Positions 975-18,891 of a stretch of 64,000 bases of DNA are shown in pieces. The stretch comes from a virus (Duplodnaviria; Caudoviricetes). Every line of letters begins with the position of its first letter. Position 1 is the first letter of the stretch. The stretch spans positions 23,317 to 87,316 of the IMG/VR virus record IMGVR_UViG_3300020047_004811, one strand, 5' to 3'. The translations under genes and the position numbers were made by a program. A model generated the notes under the pieces. The model did no database searches and was not told where the DNA came from. It was given only the letters and a program-made list of their open reading frames with translations.

Positions 975-1085
975 TGGGACTCGGGGGTTCGATTCCCTAA
1001 GCGCTAAGATGGTTCAGAGAACTAATTGAAAGCTGAGTAAGTCGGGAGTAGGAGCAAGTAATTACTGTAATCCCTCCCGGTTCAG
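975..1085 (+). ncRNA. candidate structured leader/ncRNA (T-arm-like hairpin plus motif copy A)
   Basis: GGGG-TTCGATT-CCCT hairpin; stem CGGGAG(1043-48)/CTCCCG(1074-79); blocks shared with 18828-18891. Confidence 0.45.
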
Positions 1086-1096
1086 TGAAAGGATAT

Positions 1097-1468
1097 ATGA
1101 CAAGAATAAACGTCGTTAGAGTTGAGGAACTTAGCCGAGAGCATCTGATTGCTGAGTATCGTGAAATCATGCGCTTGCCCGGTAATCTTAAGGCTTGGCT
1201 CAACCGTAAATCAAAACCACCTAGCTTCGATGAGATTCCAACAGAGTACAAACTAGGCACTGGACATGTTAAGTTCTTCTTCAATAAGTTTTTGTTTCTA
1301 CAAATACGTTTTGAGAATCTTGTGGATGAAATGCTAAGTCGTGGATATAACCCAAGATTTACAGACTCCACTATCTTTGTGGTTGACAAACTCTACTACA
1401 ACGACTATACTCCTACTGAGACTGCGATTGAAATCAACCGAGCAAGAATTAAGGAAAGTACTAAATGA
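1097..1468 (+). CDS. denV: pyrimidine-dimer DNA glycosylase (T4 endonuclease V)
   Basis: MTRINV...HLIAEYRE...LGTGHVKFF matches T4 DenV; ATG 1097 puts the catalytic Thr at position 2. Confidence 0.95.
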   Translation: MTRINVVRVEELSREHLIAEYREIMRLPGNLKAWLNRKSKPPSFDEIPTEYKLGTGHVKFFFNKFLFLQIRFENLVDEMLSRGYNPRFTDSTIFVVDKLYYNDYTPTETAIEINRARIKESTK

Positions 1469-1704
1469 ATTTATATCTTTTAACTCAAAATGTAAATAAT
1501 AATTATGATACATATGATTCTTGTGTTGTAGCAGCTCCTTCTGAAGATGAAGCTAGACTAATTAATCCTAATTATGGTGGATTTAAACCTGATACATACT
1601 CAACGTGGGCATACCACCCAGAACAAGTTAAAGTTCAACATATTGGAATTGCTAATTCTGGTACTGTAGCCGGGATAATTCTTTCAAGTTTTAATGCGGG
1701 GTAA
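1465..1704 (+). CDS. conserved phage hypothetical protein
   Basis: ATGA overlap with denV; YDTYDSCVVAAPSEDEAR pattern typical of small phage proteins. Confidence 0.7.
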   Translation: MNLYLLTQNVNNNYDTYDSCVVAAPSEDEARLINPNYGGFKPDTYSTWAYHPEQVKVQHIGIANSGTVAGIILSSFNAG

Positions 1705-1705
1705 A

Positions 1706-2116
1706 ATGAAACTAGCATATTGTCATAATCGAGAACTAGAGATGGTTGTTAAAAAAACAAGTACTTATGATTCAGAACTTCAGTATGGGGATATTGTTAT
1801 CTCACCACGCGGAGGATCAACCGTAGCAATGGAATCAATTCCCTCTTGGCTTCTAGATCAGCTCCAACAAGGTGATACCATTGTTCGTAAGGTTGGGATT
1901 GCCCGATGCTCTACCGATGATAACTATTGCAGAAAGATCGGCCGACAACTCGCTGAGTCTAGGCTCAAACAAGTCATGCTAACAGCGGTTAACATTGTTA
2001 AGATTGGAACTGAGTATACCGTAGTATTCTTCGAGGATGAAGTCGGGAACCTATTCGAGATTAAGAAGTCGGGTGACCCTTATTGTGCGAGACTTATCAG
2101 GATGTTAGATGATTAA
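1706..2116 (+). CDS. hypothetical protein
   Basis: Packed ORF with a GIARCSTDDNYCRKIGRQLAESRL motif; ATG 1706 preferred. Confidence 0.7.
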   Translation: MKLAYCHNRELEMVVKKTSTYDSELQYGDIVISPRGGSTVAMESIPSWLLDQLQQGDTIVRKVGIARCSTDDNYCRKIGRQLAESRLKQVMLTAVNIVKIGTEYTVVFFEDEVGNLFEIKKSGDPYCARLIRMLDD

Positions 2117-2306
2117 TGAAATAGCGTTTAGATTATTTCAATTGCTTATAATTAGTTGCATTCTAATAGTAATTTTGGGAATACCATATATGATATATTC
2201 AGAAACTAATTTTAGAAATAGTTGTACAAAGCAAAACGGGTCCTATAAATCAGGAAGACCAAGTCTCTGTATTTCTAAAGATGGTAGAATATTAGGAACA
2301 TTATGA
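2109..2306 (+). CDS. small membrane protein
   Basis: One N-terminal hydrophobic helix; overlaps both neighbours. Confidence 0.6.
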   Translation: MINEIAFRLFQLLIISCILIVILGIPYMIYSETNFRNSCTKQNGSYKSGRPSLCISKDGRILGTL

Positions 2307-3064
2307 ATAGATACATTGATAAACTAGGACGTTGGCATGTTAAACCTGTCTCCGAATCTAACCCCTTCCCAACAAACAATGCCTACATCTATAGCTTCTA
2401 CGCTAGGATGGTTGGACTCCCAGTTCAGTTCTCGGAAGAAGTAACAGCAGACCTAGTAAATCTAGACCTAAAGCCTATCTCTAGGCACCCGGGAATCAAG
2501 CCCCCGACTACCCCACCGATTTCACATGACGAGTATGTAGGACTTGCTGGGCTAGATATAATGGCTGCTCAAGACATTACATTCTTCGGAGAGAGCAATT
2601 ATTGGCAGATTTGTGACGTGATCGTGGACGGTAAGGCATACGTACCTACCCCATGGAGAAAGCTTGTTATAGACGATGTTATGGCTGCATATGAGGAGTT
2701 GGCTAATGACCCTGAACCTAACCCTAGAAAAGCTAGTGTTAAATATCCAGTATTATATCCATTCGCTTTCTGGCATAGACCTGAGCAGCAATACTTCTAT
2801 TATAGATGTGCTGATAGGCCACCGGGCGCTTTTAGGACTCTGTATTTTATCATCGCTACAATTGTTTCTATCAAGAAAAATGATCCGAGAAATGTTATGC
2901 TTGGATTCAAATTCCTGAAGTTGGAACAACTGAAACTTAACTTCATCGAGAAAGCTCTTTACAAACTATACGAGAAGAAAGTAAACTTCAAACAGAACTG
3001 TAGGAATTATTTCCCAGAAGACCACCCAATATTAGAGAGAGTATTAAATGAATACAGAAACTAA
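2303..3064 (+). CDS. hypothetical protein
   Basis: 253 aa ORF with ATGA overlap. Confidence 0.75.
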   Translation: MNRYIDKLGRWHVKPVSESNPFPTNNAYIYSFYARMVGLPVQFSEEVTADLVNLDLKPISRHPGIKPPTTPPISHDEYVGLAGLDIMAAQDITFFGESNYWQICDVIVDGKAYVPTPWRKLVIDDVMAAYEELANDPEPNPRKASVKYPVLYPFAFWHRPEQQYFYYRCADRPPGAFRTLYFIIATIVSIKKNDPRNVMLGFKFLKLEQLKLNFIEKALYKLYEKKVNFKQNCRNYFPEDHPILERVLNEYRN

Positions 3065-3329
3065 ACTAATTAAAGCCGAGAACTCAGCTCTCATAGATGG
3101 ATTTCTATCTATTCCTTGTTCATGTCTAGATAATCACACAGAACACATAAAAGCACATAGCGAGCTTCTAAAAGATCGGAACATGTTTGGGCTTAAACCC
3201 CCGACTATAGTAGAACGTATTCTATATTTCTTTAAATTAAAAGAAAAACCAGAGTTAACTCAATATCAAGTAGATGCAGTTTTAAATCATATTCAAGAAC
3301 ATATAGAGTTACTCAAGAGTAATCAATGA
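3048..3329 (+). CDS. hypothetical protein
   Basis: Packed ORF with a GAGAG SD-like element. Confidence 0.65.
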   Translation: MNTETKLIKAENSALIDGFLSIPCSCLDNHTEHIKAHSELLKDRNMFGLKPPTIVERILYFFKLKEKPELTQYQVDAVLNHIQEHIELLKSNQ

Positions 3330-3700
3330 AATTAATTATAGCTGGGTCTAGAACTATAACAATGTCAAATGACTTTATTCATTCAATAGTCGAACATATT
3401 TGTTATAAGTTCTCAGAGTTGGAGATTATTTCAGGAACTGCTAAAGGAATCGACACTGTTGCAATTGAATATGCTGAGGAGTTCGGTTGGGCATTAAAGA
3501 AGTTCCCTGCCGATTGGGATAAATTCGGTAAGGCTGCTGGGCATATCCGAAATAAGCAGATGGCAGAAGAAGGTGACGCTCTACTCCTGATATGGACAGG
3601 AGATAAAGAAACTAGCCCCGGTTCATATAGTATGAAACAGGCAATGTTATTTAAGAAAAAACCAGTATATGAAGTAATACTAAAGAAGCACAATGTATGA
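3326..3700 (+). CDS. SLOG-superfamily protein (DUF2493/YspA-like)
   Basis: KLIIAGSR, ISGTAKGID, WDKFGKAAGHIRNKQMA, DALL motifs. Confidence 0.85.
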   Translation: MKLIIAGSRTITMSNDFIHSIVEHICYKFSELEIISGTAKGIDTVAIEYAEEFGWALKKFPADWDKFGKAAGHIRNKQMAEEGDALLLIWTGDKETSPGSYSMKQAMLFKKKPVYEVILKKHNV

Positions 3701-3987
3701 AGATGCCATTTGGAAAACATAAAGGATTAGAGCTAGAAGAATTAGCTGAAGACTATCCAGATTATGTGGTATGGTTGGCTGAAAAATGCGATCTACATGG
3801 AGACTTGTTTTATTTCATTGGGGAACATTACGAAGCTTGTAAAATTAAAGCTCGTAATAATAGAAGAAGAAATTACCTATGGTCATATGAAGATATTGCA
3901 AATATGGAAGCTGAGTGGGGAGCAGATTATGGAGATTACGGTTATGATGACGGAATACCAATGTGCATTCCAAACTTCGATTACTAA
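3697..3987 (+). CDS. MPFGKHKG-motif protein (DUF3820-like)
   Basis: N-terminal MPFGKHKG...DYVVWL. Confidence 0.65.
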   Translation: MKMPFGKHKGLELEELAEDYPDYVVWLAEKCDLHGDLFYFIGEHYEACKIKARNNRRRNYLWSYEDIANMEAEWGADYGDYGYDDGIPMCIPNFDY

Positions 3988-4160
3988 TGAACGATCGTAA
4001 CGGAAAATGGTCAACCTCTACCTGTCTAGTATGTGGATTCCTAGGATTCTCCGTAGGTTTCCTAGCCTGTCATAAACTATACAAGGGCATGGAAGAAAAA
4101 GACTTGACAAGCCCGCCGACTCAGATATATACTTCGTTCGTGAGGAAATTATGGAACTAA
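3987..4160 (+). CDS. small membrane protein
   Basis: TAATG overlap; one hydrophobic segment. Confidence 0.5.
   Translation: MNDRNGKWSTSTCLVCGFLGFSVGFLACHKLYKGMEEKDLTSPPTQIYTSFVRKLWN
4104..4133 (+). promoter_or_regulatory. sigma70-type early promoter
   Basis: TTGACA (4104-4109), 18 nt spacer, TATACT (4128-4133). Confidence 0.65.
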
Positions 4161-4330
4161 TTCATGCTATTGCGTTACTCTGTCAATTGAATAATGGGGA
4201 TGCCTTTATGTCCACAACTAGGATACTTCAGCTAGAGTGCCATCAATATTATGTCCATTGCGTTGCAGTAAATCGAACCAAGATTCATACTCTAGACGCA
4301 CTAGAAAAGTGTATATTGGAGAAGAAGTGA
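4151..4330 (+). CDS. hypothetical protein (59 aa, absent from ORF track)
   Basis: GAGG SD, ATG 4151, ends in a GTGA overlap with the deaminase start. Confidence 0.6.
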   Translation: MELIHAIALLCQLNNGDAFMSTTRILQLECHQYYVHCVAVNRTKIHTLDALEKCILEKK

Positions 4331-4770
4331 CCTTAGATGAGTTAGATGTTCTATTTACTAAACTAGAGGAACATAAACAATATTCTTCGGATTCTGAGAC
4401 TATGGTGGCCGCTGCGCTATATCCTCCTACCGACTTTCAGTATATTAGAAAGGCTAACACGTTTGTACTTGGAGCCTCTGGACTACCAAGTGTTCGTCCA
4501 GATAAATACGAGTATATAATCCATGCTGAACAAAACGTAGTAATAACTGCGGCAAAATACGGACATAAGACAAATGGGAAAATAATGCTTTGCACACTTT
4601 CTCCATGCCAAGCTTGTATCCGAACTATGTTTCAAGCTGGGATTAAGGAAGTTTACTACAAAGAAATATACAGAAATCATAATATATCAATGTTAGATAT
4701 AGAAGTTACAGAAACAAAGATTGGGCCGTATACGAAAATGGTCTTGAGTAATTATGAGTCACAAACATAG
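4327..4770 (+). CDS. dCMP deaminase-like zinc deaminase
   Basis: IHAEQN and SPCQAC Zn motifs; GTG 4327 with GGAG SD is likelier than the track start 4237. Confidence 0.85.
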   Translation: MTLDELDVLFTKLEEHKQYSSDSETMVAAALYPPTDFQYIRKANTFVLGASGLPSVRPDKYEYIIHAEQNVVITAAKYGHKTNGKIMLCTLSPCQACIRTMFQAGIKEVYYKEIYRNHNISMLDIEVTETKIGPYTKMVLSNYESQT

Positions 4771-5422
4771 AAAATCTATTCACTTTACATCTGACTGGCA
4801 CATTGGGCATTTCAACTCTATCAAGTTTGATGATCGTCCTTTCAAGGACCTAGATCATATGCACAGAGTTCTTGTGAATAACTACAACGCTCAAGTCCCA
4901 GAAGACGGGCTATGTTATTTCCTTGGAGATATAGGTCTAAGTAGTAGCGAGACGCTAAAGAAAGTTTTAGCCGAGCTTAATGGGACCAAGGTTCTAGTAT
5001 TAGGGAATCACGATAAGAAGTTCAATGCTATGTATGAAATCGGGTTTGATGTTGTACTTCACGGTGCAACTATCTATATCGCAGGTGAACGTGTAACTAT
5101 GACTCACTGTCCTCTGCGTGGTGTATTCCGAGAGAATACTGAACATATGCGAAGTGCCTATTCAGACCGAGATAAAGCGGAAGGTATTCCTAAGTATGAG
5201 AACTGGCACGGAGAACACAAGCACGGACCATACTCATGTACTGACGAAGGACAGTTCCATTTACATGGACACATCCATTCAGGTCCAGCTAATGATAAGC
5301 TTCGAGTAGACGGTCGACAGTTAGATGTGGGTGCTCCGGCAAATAAGTATCGTCCTGTATCAATATCAGAAGTTGAATCTTGGATAGCTAAAACTAAATT
5401 AGGCTTGACAACCCATGACTAA
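4754..5422 (+). CDS. calcineurin-like metallophosphoesterase
   Basis: SDWHIGH, LGD, LGNHD, THCP, LHGHIH motifs. Confidence 0.9.
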   Translation: MSHKHRKSIHFTSDWHIGHFNSIKFDDRPFKDLDHMHRVLVNNYNAQVPEDGLCYFLGDIGLSSSETLKKVLAELNGTKVLVLGNHDKKFNAMYEIGFDVVLHGATIYIAGERVTMTHCPLRGVFRENTEHMRSAYSDRDKAEGIPKYENWHGEHKHGPYSCTDEGQFHLHGHIHSGPANDKLRVDGRQLDVGAPANKYRPVSISEVESWIAKTKLGLTTHD

Positions 5423-5526
5423 ATCATTTAAGATCAAACTAGGAAAGGTAAAGACAAGGAAACCTGTCCATAAGAAGCCTAACACAATAATGAAGTCTAA
5501 AAAAGACTATAAGAGGAAGCCAAAAC

Positions 5527-5793
5527 ATGGCAGTATACGGTGCCCAATTTCAGAAGAATAAGAAAACAATAGCCGCGCTTAATTTTCAAAAGTATGGCAA
5601 CTTTACCTGTGAGATTTGTAAGAAGTCCCCACTCCTCCCCGGCGAAGGAAATCGCTCAGATAGAAATAAAGAAGCCTCTGGAACACTTCTAACTGTGGAT
5701 CATATCCAACCCCTAGGGAAGGGGGGGAAGAATGGATTGTATAATCTACAAGTTTGTTGTAATAAATGCAATAGAGCTAAGGGATGTAAGTGA
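5527..5793 (+). CDS. small HNH nuclease
   Basis: CEIC...LTVDHIQPLGKGG...NLQVCCNKCNRAKG. Confidence 0.85.
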   Translation: MAVYGAQFQKNKKTIAALNFQKYGNFTCEICKKSPLLPGEGNRSDRNKEASGTLLTVDHIQPLGKGGKNGLYNLQVCCNKCNRAKGCK

Positions 5794-6065
5794 AATTATA
5801 CGGAGTATTTGAAGTTTATGACCCGGGAGCTGGGGAGTATAGCGAGCAATTAATTTCATTGCATTATAATAAAAAGAATGCAGAAGACAAAGCAACTGAA
5901 TTCTTAATTATAGAAGAAGAAAACCATTTAGCGAGCTGTAACCGTTTAGAGAAGGCAGGTTATAAAAGACCTGATTATCCTAATTATTTTGAATTCTACG
6001 GAGATGGCGGAGGAAAGTGGGGATCACATTCGTGGAAAGTAAGGGAACTTGAAATTGATGAGTAA
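5790..6065 (+). CDS. hypothetical protein
   Basis: GTGA overlap, packed ORF. Confidence 0.6.
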   Translation: MKLYGVFEVYDPGAGEYSEQLISLHYNKKNAEDKATEFLIIEEENHLASCNRLEKAGYKRPDYPNYFEFYGDGGGKWGSHSWKVRELEIDE

Positions 6066-6393
6066 AAATCTACTTCTTATATTTATAATGTTATTACCAT
6101 TAAAAGGATATACTGTGACATTTGAAGAAATCACCGCCGCAGATAAAGCTGTTATTCGATTTACCGCAACATGGTGCGGACCATGCAAGTCTTTCGCTCC
6201 AATCTTCGATGAAGTCGCGGCAGAGCATCCAGAGGTTAAGACCTTTGTTGTAGATGCTGACGAGAATCCAGAGATTCTCCAGAGATTTGGAGTGAGGGGA
6301 ATACCTACGGTATTTAGAATTGAATCTGGTTCTGTGAAATTACAGCGATCCGGAGTGCTCCCGAAGCCCGAGCTTGAAAAATTCTTTGAATGA
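6049..6393 (+). CDS. thioredoxin
   Basis: FTATWCGPCK active site and VRGIPT cis-Pro motif. Confidence 0.95.
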   Translation: MKLMSKNLLLIFIMLLPLKGYTVTFEEITAADKAVIRFTATWCGPCKSFAPIFDEVAAEHPEVKTFVVDADENPEILQRFGVRGIPTVFRIESGSVKLQRSGVLPKPELEKFFE

Positions 6394-6575
6394 AATACCA
6401 CGCAACACCTAACTCATTCTATATTACAATCGACAAGATTCGATATAGTACTAACTTGTATATGAAATGCAATATATCGTATTACTATAAATGTAACAAT
6501 ATGTTGTTCCACAAAGAGAGAAGCGTAAAGATATATAAAGAAAAGGCTAGACATTGGGAGAACTGGAATGAGTAA
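6390..6575 (+). CDS. hypothetical protein
   Basis: Packed ORF overlapping both neighbours. Confidence 0.5.
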   Translation: MKYHATPNSFYITIDKIRYSTNLYMKCNISYYYKCNNMLFHKERSVKIYKEKARHWENWNE

Positions 6576-7641
6576 TCCAATAGTTCTTTCACATTCGGCT
6601 CGTGGCAAGTATGACTTATGTCCAAAGTTATATCAGCTCCATTATATAGAAAAGATTAGACCGCCGGATAATAACTCGACTCTTAGATTTGGTGGGTCGA
6701 TTGATAAGGCCGCAGAGATATATCTAAAAACTAAAGACAGAGAAGCTTGTAAACTAGCATTTGAAGAAGAATGGGGAAAATATAGCGATGATCCAACGAT
6801 TGAGTTTGCTAAGCATGATTTTGATATTGAGCTTGTCCAACAATTCCATTACGAACCTATTATCGAAACTACATCATTTAAGAACCTATCCGATTTTATC
6901 TCGGTCTACAAAGATCAAGAAGTCATAAAGAACGATGTAGAAAAAGTAGCTTGGGCTAAGCTAAACTGGCTCTCCCTTCAAACTAAGGGTAGACTCATGA
7001 TATCTGCCCTGATGGATTGGGTGGATGAAAACGTAGAGGAAGTTTTAGATACTCAAGGAAAGATCGAACTAGAAGATGGGGATGGGAATAAGGTCACGGG
7101 ACTTGCAGACTTTGTAATTAAAATATACGGATACGATAAACCTATTCTAGTAGACTTGAAAACCTCGATCATATATTATCAACGAGGCTCGGTTAAAGAA
7201 TCTGAGCAGCTCGCGCTCTATTATTTCTATCTAAAACAAACCAAGTTCCCAGATATGGAACGAGCGGCATTCCTAGTGCTGAGCAAACAGATCAAGAAGA
7301 ATCGTACTAAGACTTGTTTGAAGTGTGGACATGTAACGACCGGGAGAGAACAAACTTGTGCTGAGGGTGGCAAAGGAAAAAGTAGATGTGGTGGTGAGTT
7401 TTCTATTGACATCTATCCAGAGGCTGTGTTACAGTACATCCACGATGAGATTCCAGAGGAATTCATCCAGTCTACGATTGAGAAATTTAATATATCAGTT
7501 GCAGCAATCCACGCTGGGAAATTTGAACCATGTTGGACTAGTTGTGATAATATGTATGGTCGTAGATGTCCATACTACGACTATTGTAGGACAGGATCGA
7601 TGGTCGGGTTGATTAAGAAGGAGAAAAAAGAAGATGTTTAA
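6568..7641 (+). CDS. PD-(D/E)XK nuclease (RecB/Cas4-like exonuclease)
   Basis: LSHS..KYDLCP, GLADF, LVDLKTS, QLALY and C-terminal Cys cluster (C...CPYYDYC). Confidence 0.85.
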   Translation: MSNPIVLSHSARGKYDLCPKLYQLHYIEKIRPPDNNSTLRFGGSIDKAAEIYLKTKDREACKLAFEEEWGKYSDDPTIEFAKHDFDIELVQQFHYEPIIETTSFKNLSDFISVYKDQEVIKNDVEKVAWAKLNWLSLQTKGRLMISALMDWVDENVEEVLDTQGKIELEDGDGNKVTGLADFVIKIYGYDKPILVDLKTSIIYYQRGSVKESEQLALYYFYLKQTKFPDMERAAFLVLSKQIKKNRTKTCLKCGHVTTGREQTCAEGGKGKSRCGGEFSIDIYPEAVLQYIHDEIPEEFIQSTIEKFNISVAAIHAGKFEPCWTSCDNMYGRRCPYYDYCRTGSMVGLIKKEKKEDV

Positions 7642-7864
7642 AAAACTTAAAGCAACAACTGTTAATAGTTTCATTGGTAAATCATTTTTCTACGCTGACA
7701 ATCAAACAGGCATTGGCTGGACAAGTAAAATAGATTCTATTTCTAGTAATCCACTATCAGATTCATATACCCTAGAATTGTCATGTGGAACTTTAGTAAA
7801 AATGAATAGACTTGATTTATATAAATGTAAAGAATTATCAGAATTAACAAACTTGGAGAAATAA
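7634..7864 (+). CDS. hypothetical protein
   Basis: Packed ORF. Confidence 0.55.
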   Translation: MFKKLKATTVNSFIGKSFFYADNQTGIGWTSKIDSISSNPLSDSYTLELSCGTLVKMNRLDLYKCKELSELTNLEK

Positions 7865-8112
7865 TGGCTAAGAAGATTACCCCAGCGACAACCTCAGATG
7901 CTTTCGAGGCTGAGCTTAAAAGCGAGCCTCAAATATTTGATACAGTAACTATTGGCATTGCTAAGACAGCCACAGGATATAGCATCCTAAAGGTTTCCGT
8001 AGACTCTAAAGGTCTGGAAGCCGGGGAAGTAGTAGTTCTAGATACTGCGGAAGGTAAAGCCGAGGCTAATGAAAAGTTTAAGATTAACGTAGTTAAACAG
8101 GGGATTCTATAA
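7864..8112 (+). CDS. hypothetical protein
   Basis: GGAG SD, TAATG overlap. Confidence 0.7.
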   Translation: MAKKITPATTSDAFEAELKSEPQIFDTVTIGIAKTATGYSILKVSVDSKGLEAGEVVVLDTAEGKAEANEKFKINVVKQGIL

Positions 8113-8856: not shown

Positions 8857-9456
8857 ATGAATAGATCAGAAACAATTGGCAAAATTGCCACAGCTCTCGT
8901 TAAGGCTCAAAGTGAGATGGGTAATGCCGTAAAAGGCTCAGCTAATCCATTCTTCAAATCTAAGTTCGCAGACCTGAACTCAGTACGAGAAGCTTGTATT
9001 GGACCACTCAATGCTCAGGGTGTATCAGTTCTACAGCCTACATCAGTTCTTGACGGTAAGCTTTACGTAGAAACGCTCCTATTGCACGAATCTGGGGAAT
9101 ATATCTCAGGCTTGTATGAGGTAGTGGTCGGCAAGCAAAACGATCCACAGGCGCTAGGAGCAGCTATTAGCTATAGCCGTAGATATGGTCTACAGTCTAT
9201 GGTAAATATCGGTGCGGAGGATGACGATGCTGAGTCGGCGATGGGTCGGAATACAAAGACTGTTGTAAAAACAAACACTAATACCAAAGTAGATGGGACA
9301 GTAGAAAAAACTCAGGTTTTGTCAGACGGAACTACTGGCACCACAGTTGTAACAACAGACAGCCGCGACCTTCAAGTTAAGAAAGGTGGGTTCGGAGTTA
9401 AGAAAACAGTAGAAACTACAGTAGTAGCTAGTGGTTCAGAAGATGGATGGTCATAA
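8857..9456 (+). CDS. erf: ERF-family ssDNA annealing protein
   Basis: ALVKAQ, NPFFKSKFADL, QALGAAISYSRRYGL, EDDDAE motifs. Confidence 0.92.
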   Translation: MNRSETIGKIATALVKAQSEMGNAVKGSANPFFKSKFADLNSVREACIGPLNAQGVSVLQPTSVLDGKLYVETLLLHESGEYISGLYEVVVGKQNDPQALGAAISYSRRYGLQSMVNIGAEDDDAESAMGRNTKTVVKTNTNTKVDGTVEKTQVLSDGTTGTTVVTTDSRDLQVKKGGFGVKKTVETTVVASGSEDGWS

Positions 9457-11027: not shown

Positions 11028-11051
11028 GCCGGGAATAGACCGGCATTTTTT
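11028..11051 (+). terminator. rho-independent terminator-like hairpin
   Basis: GCCGG-GAATAGA-CCGGC followed by ATTTTTT. Confidence 0.65.
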
Positions 11052-11070
11052 ATAATAGGAATATAGAAAC

Positions 11071-11295
11071 ATGAAATCAACCGGCATTTATTACAATCCG
11101 CAACTTAATAAAATTATAGAAATTATTGGAACTTTCAATGTTAACATTTGTGGAGTAGACATTATTGTTTATGATGTTAATGAAACTCAGAAAACTATAT
11201 GGGTTGACCACGCTGAATATACTTATTGTCTAGGTCCTATTTTAGGATTGACAAATGAAGGACTAAAAGGTTACTATAAAATAGGGATTTTGTAA
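11071..11295 (+). CDS. hypothetical protein
   Basis: AT-rich ORF directly before the primase. Confidence 0.55.
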   Translation: MKSTGIYYNPQLNKIIEIIGTFNVNICGVDIIVYDVNETQKTIWVDHAEYTYCLGPILGLTNEGLKGYYKIGIL

Positions 11296-11296
11296 T

Positions 11297-13246
11297 ATGA
11301 AACAGGGGGATACATTGTACGTCAACGTTCGTCGAGGGCTTAATTCTAAGCCAATGCTGGTAAATATCAAAGAAGACATTAATAAGTTTATTACCAACCG
11401 AGATCAAGATTGGTATGTAAGTTTGTATAAATATACTGACGAACATCTACAAACACTAGAAGAAACTGGAACTCTAGCTGGGATTAAAAATACTACAACA
11501 AACACACTATACTTCGACTTCGATTCCAAGGCTGATCTAGCCATTGCACAGAAAGATGCTATTGAAGTAGCAAATAGGCTTATTACTCGCGGACTAGATG
11601 AAGATAATATCGGATGCTATTTTACTGGCGGAAAGGGTTTCAGCGTAGAGGTAGAGATCAATGATTACATTACTCCAGATAAGTTTAAAGCTATTACTGC
11701 TGATATTGCGGGTGACCTCGGCACTTTTGATACTGTCGTCAATGATCCTAATCGTATTGTCCGGCTGGCTAATACTAAGCATCAAAACTCTGGACTCTAC
11801 AAAATCCCGCTCACACCAGAAGAACTAGTGTCGCTTAAAATAGACGAGATCAAGCTGCTCGCCAAGAATCCTAGACAGAATAGAATGCTAAAGGTTGCGA
11901 CATTGCCTAAGAATATGAAAGATATTGAAGTCCCAAAAGTTAAAACAGTAGAGCAAATGGCGAAGGACCTAACCTTCGATACATCTACTATTGATATGAA
12001 AGCCCGCCCAAAAGGAATTGATGAGGTTAGATGGCTTCTGATTAATGGATTCTTCAGAATTGGAGAAGGGGAACGCCACTATGCCATGCTATGTCTAGCA
12101 GCGACTTATAAAAATCAGGGATATCCTAAAGAACATTGCGATGCTCTACTCAATGCAGTAGCTTTAACTCAAGCAAATCGAACTGGAGACGACATATTTC
12201 CAGATGATAAGATTGATCTAATCACAAAGCAAGTTTATGGACCGGGATGGCAGGGCGGTCAATTTACGACTCGCGACCCTAATAACTGGCTAGCAAAATA
12301 TGCTAAGAAGATGGGGATCAATGTAAAAGAAGACGAGGGTCCTGCAACCCTTGATGGTATTAGCGCGGGATTCACCCACTATATCATGAATATTGAGAAG
12401 AATACTGTAAAGACTGGAATTGACGAGCTTGACAAAGCTATGCCTATTACAGTAGGATCAAACATTGGAGTTGTAGCTGCAGCCGGAGCTGGTAAAACAG
12501 CAATGGCGCTAAAAATGTTGAGATATAACTCAGAACAAGGAATTCCTACGGTATTTGCTTCATTGGATATGCACCGTAATAGGCTTTTTGAGAAAGTTGT
12601 GTACAATGTGACGGGTCTTAGCCGAGAAGACGTATACGCCCGATTTAAAGCTGGTAAAGGCAAGGAACTTACAGACCTAGTGAAGAAACATTACGGGAAT
12701 GTGTGGTTCTATGATCGATCTAGCGCGACCGTCGAGGATATTCGTAACTATGTAGTAGATGTAGAGGCTAGAACTGGACAAAAGATTAAGATGGTCATGT
12801 TTGACTACTTCGAGCGGATTAGTTCTGACGTTTCAGACGACACGGCAAGCTCAAAAAAGGTAGCCGGACAGATTCAGGACATGATTAACGATCTAGATGT
12901 AGCTGCAGTCACGTTAGTTCAGCCAAACAAGTTCTCCCTTGGTGGAGGACCAGACACAGAGATCAAATCATATACTGCAATCAAGGGAAGTTCGTTCCTT
13001 TACCAGAGTTTTAGGGGGATTGTTAGTCTTAGTCGCCCATTTTATACGCCAGACACGGCAGAACTTGACAAATATATGGTAATCAACGTACTGAAAAACG
13101 ATTTGGGTGCTCAAGCTAGGTTTGAAATGGGTTGGCATGGTAAAACTGGTGAGATTTATACCCTCGAAGACCATGAAAGAGCAGAGCTTAAAGAACTTAT
13201 GAAGCTTAAGAATGCAACGAAAGAAAAATCTGACGGGTGGGAATGA
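11297..13246 (+). CDS. AEP primase / PriCT / DnaB-like (SF4) helicase fusion
   Basis: LYFDFD and TGGKGF primase motifs, GERHYAMLCLA PriCT-like segment, Walker A AAGAGKT, FDYFE, LVQPNK. Confidence 0.9.
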   Translation: MKQGDTLYVNVRRGLNSKPMLVNIKEDINKFITNRDQDWYVSLYKYTDEHLQTLEETGTLAGIKNTTTNTLYFDFDSKADLAIAQKDAIEVANRLITRGLDEDNIGCYFTGGKGFSVEVEINDYITPDKFKAITADIAGDLGTFDTVVNDPNRIVRLANTKHQNSGLYKIPLTPEELVSLKIDEIKLLAKNPRQNRMLKVATLPKNMKDIEVPKVKTVEQMAKDLTFDTSTIDMKARPKGIDEVRWLLINGFFRIGEGERHYAMLCLAATYKNQGYPKEHCDALLNAVALTQANRTGDDIFPDDKIDLITKQVYGPGWQGGQFTTRDPNNWLAKYAKKMGINVKEDEGPATLDGISAGFTHYIMNIEKNTVKTGIDELDKAMPITVGSNIGVVAAAGAGKTAMALKMLRYNSEQGIPTVFASLDMHRNRLFEKVVYNVTGLSREDVYARFKAGKGKELTDLVKKHYGNVWFYDRSSATVEDIRNYVVDVEARTGQKIKMVMFDYFERISSDVSDDTASSKKVAGQIQDMINDLDVAAVTLVQPNKFSLGGGPDTEIKSYTAIKGSSFLYQSFRGIVSLSRPFYTPDTAELDKYMVINVLKNDLGAQARFEMGWHGKTGEIYTLEDHERAELKELMKLKNATKEKSDGWE

Positions 13247-13548
13247 AAACAATACAAGAAATCAAGCTAGAAGCCCGGCGTAAAGCCGACCTCAAGCAGC
13301 TACATGAATTCAACGAGCTAGTTAAATGGCTAGAAGATGCCGTTATCCCGAAATATCTAGAAAAAGGTCACACTGGTTGTAGTATATTTGGTTGGGATAG
13401 AAACATAGAAAAGCACTATGACAAGCTAAAGCCAGTGTTAGAGTCCGCTGGCTAGAAAGTAAACAAGATACCGTATCAAGAAGACGTAGGACCATTCCTT
13501 CGTCCTATGTATATAACAAGATATAATATTAATATATCATGGGAGTAG
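13243..13548 (+). pseudogene. small protein interrupted by an in-frame TAG at 13453-13455
   Basis: Frame continues ...LESAG*KVNKIP...NISWE* up to the SD of the next gene. Confidence 0.5.
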
Positions 13549-13552
13549 AGTA

Positions 13553-13717
13553 ATGTGTAAGCGAAGTCCCGAAGAAGAGGAAAGAATTATAAATGAAATC
13601 CTAGAAGATATGGGATTAGAAAAATACAAGATATCTACATCTAAGCGCGGCACAAATATAATGTGGGTAAAAGAGAAGAAAGAGGTTAAAGATAATGAGC
13701 CTAGTAAAAGAGATTAA
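13553..13717 (+). CDS. hypothetical protein (54 aa, absent from ORF track)
   Basis: GGAG SD; fills the gap to the next gene. Confidence 0.5.
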   Translation: MCKRSPEEEERIINEILEDMGLEKYKISTSKRGTNIMWVKEKKEVKDNEPSKRD

Positions 13718-14054
13718 AGTTAAAGAGTTAGAACTTAAAGAACTCAAATCTAAGAAGCAAGCTATTGATAAAATTAAAGCTTCAGATTCAATTATTTGTC
13801 ACGGCTATCAAAAAGGTCGAGGTTGTGGTAAGAAAATTAAGGTTAAAGATATTGACTTAATCCAGACTCACTGGTATACTCCTCCATACGGTTGCACTGG
13901 CGGTGACTACTATAATCTAGGAGAGTCAAACTTTATCTGCCCTAAATGCAAAACAAGGAATCGTCCTTGTTGGAATAAAGAATTTAATTTAGCAGATATG
14001 GATTTTAGACAAGTTAAAGGTAAGTTTAAATCGGTTACAGATGAGTATGAATAA
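13695..14054 (+). CDS. Cys-rich, probably Zn-binding, hypothetical protein
   Basis: C...GCGK...HWYTPPYGCTGGDY...FICPKC. Confidence 0.7.
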   Translation: MSLVKEIKVKELELKELKSKKQAIDKIKASDSIICHGYQKGRGCGKKIKVKDIDLIQTHWYTPPYGCTGGDYYNLGESNFICPKCKTRNRPCWNKEFNLADMDFRQVKGKFKSVTDEYE

Positions 14055-14193
14055 TGATTTATATCTTAGCGCTTGTTTTTATGGGTAAAAATATTAATAT
14101 GGACCTTACATTCAATAACTTAAAAGATTGTGAAATAAAAGCAAAAGAATTTATGGAAGATAACTATCAATCTAAATTTATATGTATTAAAAA

Positions 14194-14403
14194 ATGAAAT
14201 ATTTATTAATTTTAGGATTAATAGTTGGTTGTGGTAAATTTAATAGAAAAGATTATGCTTGTTTAAAAGAGTCTCCAACAAAAATTAGGTATCAAGTTTG
14301 GGATAATGGGCTAACTAAGTACAAAGTTTTGCATTGGGAAGGTCTATTTTACTTAAATGCCAACATTACGGACTTTGATAATTTATACATAAGATGTCAT
14401 TAA
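14194..14403 (+). CDS. putative lipoprotein
   Basis: MKYLLILGLIVGC lipobox-like signal. Confidence 0.55.
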   Translation: MKYLLILGLIVGCGKFNRKDYACLKESPTKIRYQVWDNGLTKYKVLHWEGLFYLNANITDFDNLYIRCH

Positions 14404-14630
14404 TAGCCCCCATGGGTGTCTCTGACTACCATGAAGGACAAATTCCACATCAATTCTAGAACAAGGTGTGGCGGAGGTAGGGACGAAAATATTCCTTTTA
14501 GTGATTGGTGGTCCTTTAAATTAAGCCGACACTCCAATGGCGTCACATGCCTAAACGCTCTGAACCCCGGCTCGACTGGGTAGTAGGAGTATAGATTTGA
14601 AGTTGTGAGGTGGCGGCTCGCTTTATTTAA
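14404..14630 (+). ncRNA. candidate structured ncRNA
   Basis: GC-enriched gap with no convincing ORF and at least six complementary stem pairs. Confidence 0.45.
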
Positions 14631-14639
14631 GGAGAGTAT

Positions 14640-14822
14640 ATGAAAAAACCAACACTTGAAGAAGCTATAATAATTATTCAAAAATCACCTGAAGGTTTTG
14701 CTAAAGAGTTCTTTAGAATACATCCTCAAACATTTATCGACCTTATTCCAGACAACCTACAACTAAATAAAAAGCCACTCAGCAAATCCCAGAAACACAA
14801 AAAGCGCAAACAAAAGCCTTGA
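14640..14822 (+). CDS. hypothetical protein
   Basis: AAGGAG SD; basic C-terminus. Confidence 0.55.
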   Translation: MKKPTLEEAIIIIQKSPEGFAKEFFRIHPQTFIDLIPDNLQLNKKPLSKSQKHKKRKQKP

Positions 14823-14848
14823 CAATCCCACCCTCGTACCAGTATAGT
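14819..14848 (+). promoter_or_regulatory. sigma70-type early promoter
   Basis: TTGACA (14819-24), 18 nt spacer, TATAGT (14843-48). Confidence 0.7.
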
Positions 14849-14855
14849 ATTTATT

Positions 14856-14974
14856 GAGCCGGTCTATGGTAGATAGCGCCCGGAGCTAATACTCCCAAGG
14901 CCTAGTTGGTTCGATTCCGACAAGGAACATGGTCTAGACTGTGGAGAGGGTTTCAAGTCCCTCCCGGCTTCCCT
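14856..14974 (+). ncRNA. tRNA-like RNA with two T-loop hairpins
   Basis: 7 bp acceptor-like stem GAGCCGG/CCGGCTT stacked on GAGGG-TTTCAAGT-CCCTC; internal GTTGG-TTCGATT-CCGAC; starts 7 nt after a -10 box. Confidence 0.6.
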
Positions 14975-14988
14975 AATAAAAGGAAAAC

Positions 14989-15135
14989 ATGAAGAAAACT
15001 AAAGGACCAAACCTAATCAAAGGTCCGAAACCAAACTTAAGGAAAAAACTTAAGGGAAAGATACAAGTGTCAGTTCGCAAGACTTGGTTCTCAGACGCTA
15101 TGGATGAACTGGACAAATTGGACAAGAAACAGTAG
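14989..15135 (+). CDS. small basic protein (48 aa, absent from ORF track)
   Basis: AAGGA SD; MKKTKGPNLIKGPKPNL... Confidence 0.5.
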   Translation: MKKTKGPNLIKGPKPNLRKKLKGKIQVSVRKTWFSDAMDELDKLDKKQ

Positions 15136-15148
15136 TTGGTCATAATAT

Positions 15149-15178
15149 TTAACAACTATAGTATATAAGGAGTTGTTA
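15149..15178 (+). promoter_or_regulatory. TTAACAACT motif inside an RBS-sequestering hairpin
   Basis: TAACAACT (15150-57) pairs with AGTTGTTA (15171-78), overlapping the AAGGAG SD and the A of ATG. Confidence 0.7.
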
Positions 15179-15798
15179 TGACCGAGATTGACATTACCCA
15201 AGAACCTAGATCAAAAAACTTTAAGGATAGAAGTGGAGAAATAGTATCTAAATTAAAGATAATTAAACTCCATAAAATTGTAAAAGTGCTGGAGTATAAA
15301 AAACCGGACGGGTCTCCCAGAACTAAAGTTTATTGGGAATGTCAATGTGATTGTGGTAATATTTGTATTAAGGGGAATGACGTTCTAAATAACCGAAAAC
15401 GGAATTTCAGTTGCGGGTGTTTTAGAAAACAAAGAATTACTCAAACAAAATTAAAGCCTGAAAATCACAGAGAAAATATACTAGTCCAAACTATGGCTAG
15501 ATATAGAATTGAAGCAAAAAATAGAAACTATTCTTTTAATTTATCTAAAGATGAATTTATTGATGTAATAAACAAACCATGTTTTTATTGTGCAACAGAA
15601 AACTCACAATTTGTAACACACCCGATCACGAAAGAAAAACATTGGTTTAGTGGAATAGATCGCATTGACAACCGCGCTGGATATGAGTATAATAATATAG
15701 TCCCGTGTTGTAAGAAATGTAACACTAAGAAAAATAGTATAGACCCAGAAATGGTAGTCAAACTTTATAATTTGCTGAAAGAGAAAGGTATCATTTAA
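15178..15798 (+). CDS. HNH homing endonuclease
   Basis: WECQCDCGN N-terminal motif; CFYC...GIDRIDN...NIVPCCKKCNTKK. Confidence 0.85.
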   Translation: MTEIDITQEPRSKNFKDRSGEIVSKLKIIKLHKIVKVLEYKKPDGSPRTKVYWECQCDCGNICIKGNDVLNNRKRNFSCGCFRKQRITQTKLKPENHRENILVQTMARYRIEAKNRNYSFNLSKDEFIDVINKPCFYCATENSQFVTHPITKEKHWFSGIDRIDNRAGYEYNNIVPCCKKCNTKKNSIDPEMVVKLYNLLKEKGII

Positions 15799-17693
15799 TG
15801 TCCAAATTGATTTACGGGAAAAATGATTTAGAAAGAATCGTTTCGATTGAAATATCAGACGATACCGCTACCCTGTTTAGGGAACTAGAAGATGGCACTT
15901 TAGATATCAAAAAAGTTCCTAATAAATTTTGGATTCTTGGTTCTAGACAATTCGATAAAAGTTGGATTAGACTAGAAGGAGAACAACATTTTAAATGGGG
16001 TAAGCAATTTTCTAAATATTCCGATTGGGCAGAAACCAAAAAATCATTACCATTTCAAGAAATTTACACAGTTAGTAATCAGGTAGAAGCGTTTCAAATT
16101 AAAGACGGGTATACTTTATTTAAAGGAATGAAACACAACGAACCTAGTATTCTTTCTTTCGATATCGAGACAACCGGATTGGACCATAATGCAGATTCAA
16201 AGGTTATTCTGATTTCTAATACTTTTAGAAAATTAGGAAAAATAACAAGAAAGTTATTTTGCTATAGTGATTATTCAAATTGTGCGAAAATGATCGACGA
16301 CTGGGCTAGTTGGGTAAGAATGATGGACCCCAGCATTATGTGTTTTCATAATGGTTACGCTTACGATTTACCATATCTTAACTACTGTCACGCTAAATAT
16401 AGCGATGAGCCTATTATTCTCGGAAGATGTGACAAACCTATCTACTTCAGTAAATATGAATCTAAATATCGAGTTGATGGTAGCCGGGACCTTCATTATT
16501 TTAAATGTCAAATCTACGGACGAGAACTAGTCGATACAATGTTCCTATCCTATAAATATGATGCTGTAGAGAAGAAATACGAGTCATACGGTCTGAAAAA
16601 GATTATTGCTCAGGAAGGACTTGAGAAAGCCGGACGGACATTCTACGATGCATCGCTAATCAGAACAAACTATACAGACCCAGTTGAACTGGAAAAGATT
16701 AAACAATATGCGGAAGAAGATGGCGACGATGCTCTGGCTTTGTATGATCTTATGGTTGCTCCTACCTTTTATCTTACCCAATCAATTCCTAAACCATTCC
16801 AGCTTGTTGTTGAGTCTGCCACCGGCTCTCAGATTAACTCTCTTCTTGTCCGTGCTTATTTACAAGATAAACACAGCGTCGCAAAAGCCGACAATCTAGA
16901 TGAAGAAAAGGTTGAGGGGGGAATTTCCTTTGCAGTCCCGGGAATCTATAATAACGTATTCAAGATTGATATTAAGTCTTGTTACCCATCTCAAATTCTA
17001 AGGTTCAAACTTTATGAAGAACGTAAAGACCCAAACGCATATTACTACAAACTCGTCGAGCACTTCACCCTCCAACGATTTGAGTACAAAAAACAAATGC
17101 TCGCAACCGGCGACAACTATTGGAAAAATCTGGACGCTATGGCTAAAATCTTTATTAATAGTAGCTACGGTGTGGCTAATACCAGCGGGCTTAACTATAA
17201 CTCAGCCGCTATCGCCAGGAAAATTACCATTGAGTCTCGCGCTATTATTGACATGTCTCTTAGGTGGGCTTCTGGTAGTGGGTATAGGACTTGGGCTACT
17301 AAATTTTATGATGCTATTGGAGAAAAAGAAGAAGACCGAGTCTACTTGTCGTTGCCGGAATCGCCGCTGGCAATAAAATATCACCACGACTTCATAATCG
17401 CACCGTCAGATACAGATTCTATTTCGTTCTGTAAACCAGACATGGCTCCATTCAGCCCAGAAGAGATCAAAACTCTACTAGGAGAGATTAATGAGCAATC
17501 CCCTGACAAAGTCCTGTGGGAAGACGATGGCGTCTATAAAACGATTATAGCCCTTAAAGCTAAGAACTATGTTCTACTTAAAAACAATGGAAAATTAACA
17601 ACTAAAGGTAGTGCATTAAAGGGTGGAGTTAAGTGTCCAGCTCTTAAAAAATTCATGAAAGAGGTTGTTGATGTCTTGCTCGAAACTGAATAG
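15798..17693 (+). CDS. family B DNA polymerase, N-terminal part (exonuclease, palm, fingers)
   Basis: FDIETTG, HNGYAYD exonuclease motifs; DIKSCYPS (A), KIFINSSYG (B), SDTDS (C), KAKNY; ends early in the thumb. Confidence 0.95.
   Translation: MSKLIYGKNDLERIVSIEISDDTATLFRELEDGTLDIKKVPNKFWILGSRQFDKSWIRLEGEQHFKWGKQFSKYSDWAETKKSLPFQEIYTVSNQVEAFQIKDGYTLFKGMKHNEPSILSFDIETTGLDHNADSKVILISNTFRKLGKITRKLFCYSDYSNCAKMIDDWASWVRMMDPSIMCFHNGYAYDLPYLNYCHAKYSDEPIILGRCDKPIYFSKYESKYRVDGSRDLHYFKCQIYGRELVDTMFLSYKYDAVEKKYESYGLKKIIAQEGLEKAGRTFYDASLIRTNYTDPVELEKIKQYAEEDGDDALALYDLMVAPTFYLTQSIPKPFQLVVESATGSQINSLLVRAYLQDKHSVAKADNLDEEKVEGGISFAVPGIYNNVFKIDIKSCYPSQILRFKLYEERKDPNAYYYKLVEHFTLQRFEYKKQMLATGDNYWKNLDAMAKIFINSSYGVANTSGLNYNSAAIARKITIESRAIIDMSLRWASGSGYRTWATKFYDAIGEKEEDRVYLSLPESPLAIKYHHDFIIAPSDTDSISFCKPDMAPFSPEEIKTLLGEINEQSPDKVLWEDDGVYKTIIALKAKNYVLLKNNGKLTTKGSALKGGVKCPALKKFMKEVVDVLLETE
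17595..17603 (+). promoter_or_regulatory. TTAACAACT motif inside polB, upstream of GIY-YIG gene
   Basis: Exact 9-mer ending 67 nt before ATG 17671. Confidence 0.55.
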
Positions 17694-18450
17694 TTTTATA
17701 GTATATAAGGTTACTTCTCCAAGTGGTGGAATTTACATAGGAATTACATCTCAAGGATTAGAAAAAAGAAAACAAGATCATTTTTATGAGGCAAAAACTC
17801 ATAAAACAAACAGAAAATTCCATAATGCTTTAAATAAGTATAAAGATAAATTAATCTGGGAAATAATCAAAACTCAATTAAGTAAAAAATTAGCTCAAAA
17901 ATATGAAGAGTACTATATAAAAAAATATAACACTCAAAAATTGGGCTATAATATTACATCAGGAGGAGAATGTAATTTAGGTAGAGTAATGACTGAAGAA
18001 CAAAAATCAGTTTTATCTAGAATATCTAAAAAACAATTTAAAGATCGCCCAGAACTAAGAAAAAATATGTCTGATATTCAAAAGAAAAGACTTTCTGATC
18101 CGAATGAGAATAAAAAGCATAGACAATTGATGAAAAAGACTCATGGAACCAAGGAAGCTCGACTTAGAAATTCTAGAATTCAAGGAGGAAAACCATTCAA
18201 TGTCTATAATTTTATAACTAAAGAATTTGTCAAAACATATGAAATTATAACTGACGCTAATAATGAACTAGGTCTTCCAAATGGAAAAGTTTCATGGTGT
18301 CTATCAGGAAAGAGAAATCATTGTAAAACTTATATATTCAAATATATTGACGACCCAACAGTTGACGGTATAAAATACAATCATATCTGGGATAAAAAAA
18401 TAAAGAGGATGCCAAATGGGACTAACAGAAAAAAAGAAAGAAAAGCTTAA
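17671..18450 (+). CDS. GIY-YIG homing endonuclease (NUMOD3/NUMOD1-like tail)
   Basis: IVY..TSPSGGIYIGIT, E..YIKKYNT..LGYNITSGG; AT-rich; overlaps both polB halves; GAGG SD before ATG 17671. Confidence 0.9.
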   Translation: MSCSKLNSFIVYKVTSPSGGIYIGITSQGLEKRKQDHFYEAKTHKTNRKFHNALNKYKDKLIWEIIKTQLSKKLAQKYEEYYIKKYNTQKLGYNITSGGECNLGRVMTEEQKSVLSRISKKQFKDRPELRKNMSDIQKKRLSDPNENKKHRQLMKKTHGTKEARLRNSRIQGGKPFNVYNFITKEFVKTYEIITDANNELGLPNGKVSWCLSGKRNHCKTYIFKYIDDPTVDGIKYNHIWDKKIKRMPNGTNRKKERKA

Positions 18451-18823
18451 AGAATTATATGAGACATATGTTAATGAAATTATGACTTTGCAAGATATCA
18501 AACCATGGTGTACAAGAAAAACATTATCTAGTACTATGCAGGAATCGGATCGAACTAATGAAACTAAAGTGATGACAGCACTAGAGGGTTCTGACTATAG
18601 AGAAGGTGACAGATTTTACACTTACTACAAAGAAGACGACTCTATAGGATTAGCTGAAAACTTCAATCACGACCACAATAGAATGAGATTACTAAAGAAT
18701 CTATACGACAGCAGTGCTATTTTTTCAACTGTAATCCCATCTAAAGAACTATTCCCAAACTATAGTTTAAAAAAGAACTATAAGATTCTTCTTGACAAAT
18801 ACTCCCCATCTCCTGTAAGTTAA
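18416..18823 (+). CDS. family B DNA polymerase, C-terminal (thumb) part
   Basis: Continues the polB pattern (YETYVNEI..IKPWCTRKT..TNETKV..GDRFYTYY..LLKNLY); own AGAGG SD. Confidence 0.7.
   Translation: MGLTEKKKEKLKELYETYVNEIMTLQDIKPWCTRKTLSSTMQESDRTNETKVMTALEGSDYREGDRFYTYYKEDDSIGLAENFNHDHNRMRLLKNLYDSSAIFSTVIPSKELFPNYSLKKNYKILLDKYSPSPVS
18792..18821 (+). promoter_or_regulatory. sigma70-type early promoter
   Basis: TTGACA (18792-97), 18 nt spacer, TAAGTT (18816-21). Confidence 0.55.
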
Positions 18824-18827
18824 TCTT

Positions 18828-18891
18828 AGCCGGGGGGTAAGTCGGAAATCCCAGCAAGTGCACTGTATGGCTTTCGGTCTCCCGGCTCCCT
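18828..18891 (+). ncRNA. candidate small structured RNA (motif copy B)
   Basis: Closing stem AGCCGGGGG/CTCCCGGCT; shares GTAAGTCGG-N7-AGCAAGT..ACTGTA..CTCCCGG with 1037-1080. Confidence 0.55.

Follow-up and report, generated by a model that had tools for sequence, protein, structure and literature searches.

Two non-coding leaders in the genome of an uncultured Caudoviricetes phage contain diverged copies, A and B, of one irregular, unbranched hairpin, each located directly upstream of the Shine-Dalgarno (SD) sequence of a different gene. We describe them here in a 64,000-nucleotide stretch, the window, which comprises bases 23317-87316 of the 87,316-base IMG/VR virus record IMGVR_UViG_3300020047_004811, rated complete by CheckV; positions are those of the window unless another locus is named. 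The two copies adopt the same predicted fold and differ by compensatory changes in their stems, the motif is private to this phage or its very closest kin, and the leader slots in which it lies are empty in some related phages and hold unrelated structures, including genuine tRNAs, in others. The element is best described as a structured cis-acting leader hairpin, a kind of element that is already known; this particular fold has no assigned family. As to its role, we tentatively favor that of a lineage-specific, duplicated structural module of the 5' untranslated region (UTR) which would stabilize or insulate the message.

Results

The two copies and their common fold

Both copies lie on the + strand and share four identical blocks, GTAAGTCGG, AGCAAGT, ACTGTA and CTCCCGG, which span 1037-1080 in copy A and 18837-18885 in copy B, with exactly 7 nt between the first two blocks and unrelated linkers elsewhere. 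This description, given in a first-pass annotation made from the letters alone, was borne out on re-inspection in its coordinates, strand, blocks and gap, as were its statements that both copies are non-coding and that they precede unrelated genes, encoding a DenV-like glycosylase (A) and a 51-residue hydrophobic protein (B). The block spacings of A and B differ by non-multiples of three, so that the copies share no reading frame, and the downstream open reading frames (ORFs) begin at conserved ATG codons (1097 and 18903). Blocks 1 and 2 with their fixed gap occur exactly only at A and B in the 87-kb genome, the local alignment of A with B reached z-scores of 6.1-6.8 and was equalled by none of 300 shuffles, and a covariance model built from copy A alone (R1) retrieved copy B as its sole other match in the window on either strand (24.8 bits, E 5e-5). 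These results together establish that the likeness is real. It reaches 3' beyond the last block, through AAGGAT(T)ATATG (SD and spacer), to the start codon, and the two copies are about 40% diverged.

Folding each copy separately with RNAfold gave one architecture for A and B, an irregular unbranched hairpin of approximately 55-60 nt (Table 1). From the outside inwards, both comprise an outer stem, a 4-nt UAAG bulge on the 5' side only and a second stem opening with UCGG. After a short bulge follow three base pairs (GGA/UCC in A, CCA/UGG in B), then GCA opposite GUA(A) as an internal loop, and finally an AGU/ACU stem with a small cap. The helix, interrupted by the bulge and the internal loop, amounts to 19 bp in A and 21-22 bp in B, and ends 2 nt (A) or 6 nt (B) before AAGGA. 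A pairing of AAGTC with GG(C/T)TT, put forward in the first-pass annotation, has no place in the supported fold, in which AAG lies in the bulge and TC opens stem 2.

In an Infernal alignment of these two sequences only, fitted to the structure of copy A and thereby favoring it, standard pairs fill 37 of the 38 cells, copy B conforming in 18 of the 19 pairs and six pairs being changed on both sides; the fold of copy B was also predicted independently. When the pairing partners were slid by one to three columns as a control, 37-55% of the cells were paired. Copy B is not clearly stabler than its own shuffles because it is rich in G+C (the elements have 49-60% G+C, the genome 39.6%). Identical positions are more frequent among the internal unpaired nucleotides (11 of 13) than among the paired ones (22 of 38), which amounts to a trend only (Fisher p 0.10). 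With this p-value and two sequences, the earlier proposal that the blocks reflect selection rather than recent duplication is suggestive only. Block 4, CTCCCGG, forms the 3' strand of stem 2 in A and that of the outer stem in B; its identity is therefore not positional homology.

Table 1. Coordinates of the hairpins and of associated features in the window
Feature	Position	Strand	Details
Copy A hairpin	1032..1086	+	RNAfold -19.9 kcal/mol; z -3.9; 0/200 shuffles as stable
Copy A outer stem	1032-1037/1081-1086		6 bp; UAAG bulge 1038-1041
Copy A stems 2 and 3	1042-1048/1074-1080; 1051-1053/1071-1073		2-nt bulge 1049-1050 between them
Copy A internal loop, stem 4 and cap	1054-1056/1067-1070; 1057-1059/1064-1066; 1060-1063		internal loop GCA/GUAA; terminal loop AAUU
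Copy B hairpin	18828..18887	+	RNAfold -24.5 kcal/mol; z -1.35 to -1.8
Copy B outer stem and stem 2	18828-18837/18878-18887; 18842-18847/18872-18877		outer stem 10 bp; UAAG bulge 18838-18841
Copy B stem 3 and internal loop	18851-18853/18868-18870; 18854-18856/18865-18867		internal loop GCA/GUA
Copy B stem 4	18857-18858(9)/(18862)18863-18864		CCC directly after the hairpin
Promoter-like sequence before A	919..972	+	TTGACA 919-924; 18-nt spacer; TATAAC 943-948
Non-coding insert	973..1096	+	124 nt, between remnant stop codon and DenV-like start
DenV-like gene downstream of A	1097..1468	+	pyrimidine-dimer DNA glycosylase; Pfam PF03013, E 6e-15
HNH homing-endonuclease-type gene	281..922	+	motif WSIDH...NLQPMWHIDNIKKSNK read by eye; Pfam no match at E 1e-3
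Sigma-70-type promoter before B	18792..18821	+	TTGACA; 18-nt spacer; TAAGTT
SD and gene downstream of B	18894..19058	+	SD AAGGA 18894-18898; ATG 18903; 51-aa hydrophobic protein
GIY-YIG endonuclease gene	17665..18450	+	Pfam PF01541, PF22083; just upstream of copy B
Leader element C, tRNA-like	14857..14970	+	~8 nt after -10 box of promoter 14819-14848

Search for known families and further copies

When the whole window was compared with Rfam (release 15) at the gathering score, no family matched, and the regions around A and B gave no relevant match at E<=10 either; the copies therefore match no tRNA, tmRNA, RNase P RNA, curated ribozyme or phage leader family, and this comparison, suggested in the first-pass annotation, leaves the element without a known family. 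A loose echo of RNase P words remarked on there can be set aside, as no RNase P, tRNA or tmRNA match was found at the gathering threshold or at E<=10 and the element measures 55-60 nt as against more than 300 nt for RNase P RNA. ARAGORN detected no tRNA in the window or the whole genome, also with lowered thresholds, and cmscan of the A and B regions with permissive filters (E<=10) gave no match to hammerhead, twister, twister-sister, pistol, hatchet, hairpin or HDV-like ribozymes. Of the assignments offered initially (cis-regulatory RNA, small ribozyme or decoy), that of a structured leader RNA located in cis and without an Rfam family holds, while a ribozyme or a decoy is unsupported.

Two more specific candidates were tried and rejected. 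A descent of A and B from tRNA-Tyr, prompted by ACUGUAA, by the D-loop-like AGUCGG and by the tRNA-Tyr of a related locus described below, received no support from alignment (z -0.4 and -0.6). A hammerhead reading of copy A (CUGA...GAAA) fails on spacing, the bases concerned are paired in the fold, and they are absent from copy B. The T-loop word is absent from A (1032-1086) and from B, neither of which forms an acceptor/T-arm minihelix, and copy B alone has a 7-bp acceptor-like stem followed by CCC. Nor do the copies resemble intrinsic terminators: they have no U tract (tails UUCAGUGAAAGG and CCCUAUAAGG) and neither appeared in terminator scans. No antisense partner of the blocks was found elsewhere in the genome.

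Further copies were sought with pattern scans, which matched once in IMG/VR, by chance and in coding sequence, six times in JGI metagenomes, none of the matches folding, and 24 times in the GTDB genomes (185,000 prokaryotes, one per species), at or below chance and always with 13 bits or less under the model. A relaxed core descriptor run over the loci of relatives found nothing, and a second model (R2), at E<=10, found no third copy in the own genome and 33 relatives' loci (607 kb) or in five whole IMG/VR relatives; records very near this genome may have been absent from the collections searched. The phage has many relatives in metagenomes, on contigs of up to 90 kb and with a DNA polymerase 75-84% identical to its own (loci of relatives carry L numbers, L004-L065, below); among cultured phages, megablast and tblastn found no close relative. 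The first-pass annotation had counted a lack of further homologues and of covariation as signs against its proposal: no further homologues were indeed found, yet covariation between the two copies is present, in 6 of the 19 pairs.

Leader slots in this phage and its relatives

The slot of copy B lies at the end of a family-B DNA polymerase gene. The -35 box of its promoter sits in the last codons (LLDK) of the ORF for the polymerase C-terminus, and all nine closer relatives examined keep CTTGACAA and a -10-like box where the polymerase gene ends. The first paired base of copy B is the seventh after the -10 box, that is, approximately at the predicted transcript start. Homologues of the 51-residue protein were detected by tblastn at the same place in six relatives. 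What lies between promoter and SD sequence in the relatives varies. Unrelated closed structures of 70-110 nt occupy the slot in L004, L005, L031, L032, L034 and L063, a 30-nt hairpin does so in L007/L008, and the slot is empty in L009 and L064/L065. In L006 it holds a tRNA (12299-12402; Rfam, 45 bits) which ends in CCA and lies between the polymerase-end promoter and the SD sequence of the small membrane-protein gene. In 8 of the 9 filled B-slot leaders of relatives, and in three small hairpins of a further slot (C, see below), the first paired base comes 5-9 nt after the -10 box, and most of the filled B-slot leaders end in (N)CC(A/C), followed by a U-rich stretch and AAGGA. In more distant relatives (polymerase 45-52% identical) both promoter and leader are missing at this place, and a degenerate pattern for the polymerase-end promoter matched only unrelated AT-rich phages in IMG/VR.

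Two of these fillings deserve a further remark. In the tRNA of L006, which ARAGORN missed, the anticodon loop is replaced by an extended hairpin of about 35 nt, and the filling of L032 (12313-12396) is a cloverleaf with a T-loop feature that ends in ACCA and is similar to element C.

The slot of copy A is differently built. Whereas the promoter assigned to copy B by the first-pass annotation is good and is conserved in relatives, the one assigned to copy A is only promoter-like: its -10 box, TATAAC, is imperfect, without the final T, and the sequence that contains it (919-972) is a 17-codon remnant that duplicates the 3' end of a cytochrome-c-like gene. This remnant translates as LTNTVDFIYNYIQSTKK followed by a stop and matches the C-termini encoded by the intact genes of relatives. 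Copy A begins about 78 nt after the start predicted from this promoter. In the insert between the remnant and the DenV-like gene, copy A and the SD sequence AAGGA (1089-1093) are preceded by two other hairpins, of which the one at 976-998 carries a T-loop-like word and the one at 1010-1024 is small. The corresponding spacer measures 0 nt in L060 and L062, whose DenV is 85-91% identical, and consists of other sequence in L059 and L061.

A third leader of this phage, element C, has a 7-bp acceptor-like stem, two hairpins of the T-loop type (a terminal T arm and an internal one) and the tail CCC, and was called a tRNA neither by ARAGORN nor by Rfam at E<=10. By local alignment it appears weakly but significantly similar to copy B (z 4.1) and to the A insert (z 3.3), with which it has the 11-mer GGTTCGATTCC in common, and its alignment to a counterpart in L004 (9092-9180) reached z 12. 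The C-slot is filled in some relatives only. Besides, L061 contains a tRNA-Tyr (GTA) detected by Rfam (54.5 bits) and confirmed by ARAGORN, and its region 5140-5280 reads, in order, promoter (TTGACA, 18-nt spacer, TATACT), tRNA, CCA, SD sequence and ATG. At the equivalent place in the window (promoter at 4104) there is a short leader only, and this phage has no tRNA.

All three slots (A, B and C) of this phage adjoin homing-endonuclease genes, namely the HNH gene 281-922, the GIY-YIG gene 17665-18450 and an HNH-like ORF (15178-15798). The GIY-YIG gene splits the polymerase gene into ORFs of 631 aa (15798-17693) and 135 aa (18416-18823), both of which it overlaps; the polymerase is unsplit (~765 aa) in most relatives, and the same split is present in one, L005. 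At copy A, the intact cytochrome-c-like gene ends near 266 and the HNH gene lies between it and the remnant. Since the cytochrome-c-like gene is complete ahead of the HNH gene, the stretch 919-972 represents a duplicate rather than an exon. The layout of gene, endonuclease and remnant looks like the scar of an endonuclease-linked cassette replacement. Group I introns around the endonuclease genes were considered and rejected, given that the overlapping ORFs leave no room for one, there is no Rfam match, and the upstream cytochrome-c-like gene is complete.

Some details of the endonuclease loci may be added. The remnant is closer to the sequence of relatives than is the end of the intact cytochrome gene itself, and TTAACAACT, followed by TATAGT, is found at 266-280, directly before the HNH gene. 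The ORF 15178-15798 lies directly upstream of the polymerase and has the HNH-like C-terminal motif CCKKCNTKKNS.

Discussion

A proposed generic leader module

The arrangement just described suggests that A and B are paralogues of one structured module placed 2-6 nt ahead of the SD sequences of two unrelated genes, and that the leader slots, which extend from a host-type promoter to the ribosome-binding site (RBS), may take a small hairpin, a closed structure with (N)CC at its end, a genuine tRNA or no element at all, one in exchange for another. Since many unrelated structures, or none, occupy the same slot and share mainly their start at the 5' end and their stop just before the RBS, the simplest function is a generic one. 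We infer that both leaders are transcribed and that a closed structure located at the 5' end of the message, or cut so as to become its 5' end, would protect it from 5'-end-dependent decay; such a hairpin would also insulate the RBS from the sequence context further upstream. Ectopic recombination or repair between slots, which adjoin homing-endonuclease genes, probably produced one copy from the other, and the stretch copied would have comprised the hairpin, the SD sequence and the spacer as far as the start codon.

Several observations weigh against this proposal. Copy A is not 5'-terminal, lying ~78 nt past the predicted start of an imperfect promoter, and would have to be exposed by cleavage before it could protect an end. 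Copy B does not exceed its G+C-rich shuffles in stability (z -1.35 to -1.8). The UAAG bulge and the GCA/GUA loop are identical while the stems have changed, which a purely generic role leaves unexplained and which is suggestive of specific recognition. Some close relatives have nothing in these slots, and the module is therefore dispensable. Finally, the pair counts come from two sequences only, in an alignment fitted to the structure of A.

Alternative explanations

If the element were specifically recognized, the conservation of the unpaired nucleotides would be accounted for. A host RNase (RNase III, or RNase P, Z or E) might cut it as a processing hairpin, or an RNA-binding translational repressor that co-regulates both genes might use it as an operator. 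In favor of this explanation, which we hold to be possible but doubtful, the bulge and internal loop are preserved (11 of 13 nucleotides identical) while the stems covary, and an irregular helix of 19-22 bp with internal loops lies directly before the SD sequence. It is also consistent with the true tRNAs and the tRNA-like elements ending in (A)CC(A) that occupy the same slots in relatives and are expected to be cut by tRNA-processing enzymes, and with the acceptor-like 7-bp stem and CCC in which copy B ends. However, the loops are not significantly more conserved (p 0.10), the elbow that RNase P and RNase Z use is lacking because the hairpin contains no T-loop, and the relatives that have the same two genes do not have the motif, so that no conserved regulator-operator pair is visible. 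A further reading, in which the A/B fold is an RNase-recruiting or self-cleaving motif read through the UAAG bulge and the GCA/GUA loop, and belongs to a set of interchangeable "cistron-liberating" modules (tRNAs, look-alikes and hammerheads) swapped by the clade, appears improbable to us. A new small self-cleaving ribozyme that frees the downstream cistron is less probable still: conserved unpaired nucleotides with covarying stems are the pattern of small ribozymes, and new classes have historically been found near hammerhead or twister loci (PMC6154101), but there is no Rfam ribozyme match even at E<=10, no homologue in any of the collections searched, in contrast to the widespread known classes, and a catalytic pocket would find little room in a single unbranched hairpin.

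The copies may also have no function at all. They might be decaying pieces of an older tRNA-like leader element which was spread by endonuclease-provoked repair and kept as harmless. We consider such an origin unlikely, even though the motif is private to one phage and present in two copies, the slots are polymorphic for presence and absence, the A insert shares the T-loop 11-mer and a 3' stretch with the tRNA-like element C, and a duplicated gene remnant and endonuclease genes adjoin the copies. Drift would be expected to break the stems, yet after ~40% divergence 37 of the 38 cells remain paired, with six double changes; copy A is far stabler than its shuffles (z -3.9), both copies are much richer in G+C than the genome, and the alignment to a relative's tRNA-Tyr gave no signal (z -0.4 and -0.6), so that descent from a tRNA is not shown. 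Lastly, two diverged copies placed soon after host-type promoters and before unrelated genes, with conserved loops and covarying stems, resemble the pattern of HK022 putL/putR, a nascent-RNA antiterminator which carries RNA polymerase through downstream terminators. This we regard as highly improbable, as the put fold has two stems and not a single hairpin, the same slot of the relatives holds tRNAs or nothing, and a strict scan of the whole 87-kb genome predicts, on the + strand, a single strong site that resembles an intrinsic terminator (11028-11053).

Comparison with known systems

The nearest mechanistic analogues of the hairpin would be 5'-terminal stabilizing stem-loops and the RNase III sites of phage T7. 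The former, of the ompA type, were reportedly described in bacterial mRNAs by Emory, Bouvet and Belasco in 1992. Copy B and most of the slot elements of relatives are like them in that a stable hairpin is located within a few bases of the predicted transcript start and upstream of the RBS; by prediction, copy B starts at the seventh base after the -10 box. Copy A is unlike them, being internal to its leader at ~78 nt from the start, and in both copies the nucleotides of bulge and loop are conserved beyond what end protection needs. Phage T7 has RNase III processing hairpins between its early genes (R1.1 and relatives). They too are irregular hairpins, related to one another and dispersed within one phage genome, with internal loops in about 20 bp of helix; they lie before RBSs and have conserved blocks and diverged remainders, and the predicted folds of A and B are irregular helices of that length, with an internal loop, between genes. 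In contrast to T7, A and B are two copies only, and they have no sequence likeness to the T7 sites.

From an evolutionary standpoint, the nearest analogue would be the PeSL regulatory cassettes of T4-type phages, in which a stem-loop terminator lies upstream of a sigma-70-like early promoter and which flank ORFans in dozens of copies (PMC2839356). They are alike in being short cassettes of promoter and hairpin, repeated beside accessory genes, linked to recombination and variable between close relatives, and unlike in that the A/B hairpin follows the promoter, is not trailed by a U tract and occurs in two copies; neither copy can thus be classed as a PeSL. For the tRNA-like fillings of the slots, the closest parallel appears to be the "t-elements" of plant mitochondria, tRNA-like sequences that act, as tRNAs do, as mRNA punctuation (PMC1920247). 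The slots of the clade hold tRNAs (L006, L061) and, in L032, a CCA-ending acceptor/T-arm look-alike directly before the SD sequence, and cuts by RNase P and RNase Z would define mRNA ends. A and B themselves differ in having no T-loop or cloverleaf and no score with tRNA models, and only B has an acceptor-like stem and CCC. Hammerhead ribozymes located before the RBS in phage operons are likewise compact folded RNAs immediately 5' of the SD sequence; their core is absent here, however, CUGA-GUAAG in copy A being a mere resemblance that is paired in the fold, is missing from copy B and has no Rfam match.

Taken alone, the motif, a leader hairpin present in two copies and private to one uncultured phage, has a small reach; its setting, the polymorphism of the slots, is of more interest. 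If the different fillings were functionally equivalent, the slots could represent natural selection for RNA insulator or processing parts, comparable to the ribozymes or tRNAs that synthetic biologists place before an RBS, and endonuclease-provoked repair could be a way in which such parts move.

Other observations

A replication-origin role was also considered and dropped, as the GC skew of the genome merely tracks gene direction. Hammerhead core motifs were seen, in part only, in the early region of this genome, more than 10 kb away from copy A, a distance that weighs against the ribozyme reading. In four relatives, G+C-rich conserved non-coding stretches of ~290 nt follow the primase-helicase gene (L031, 8395-8687; L032, 7814-8114; L034, ~8900-9190; L064, 4382-4669); they have no Rfam match at the gathering score, no counterpart was seen in the window, and each ends just before an SD sequence. 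Within the HNH-like ORF 15178-15798, at 15665, there is a perfect TTGACA, 17-nt spacer and TATAAT, and the same arrangement is found in L005 and L006.

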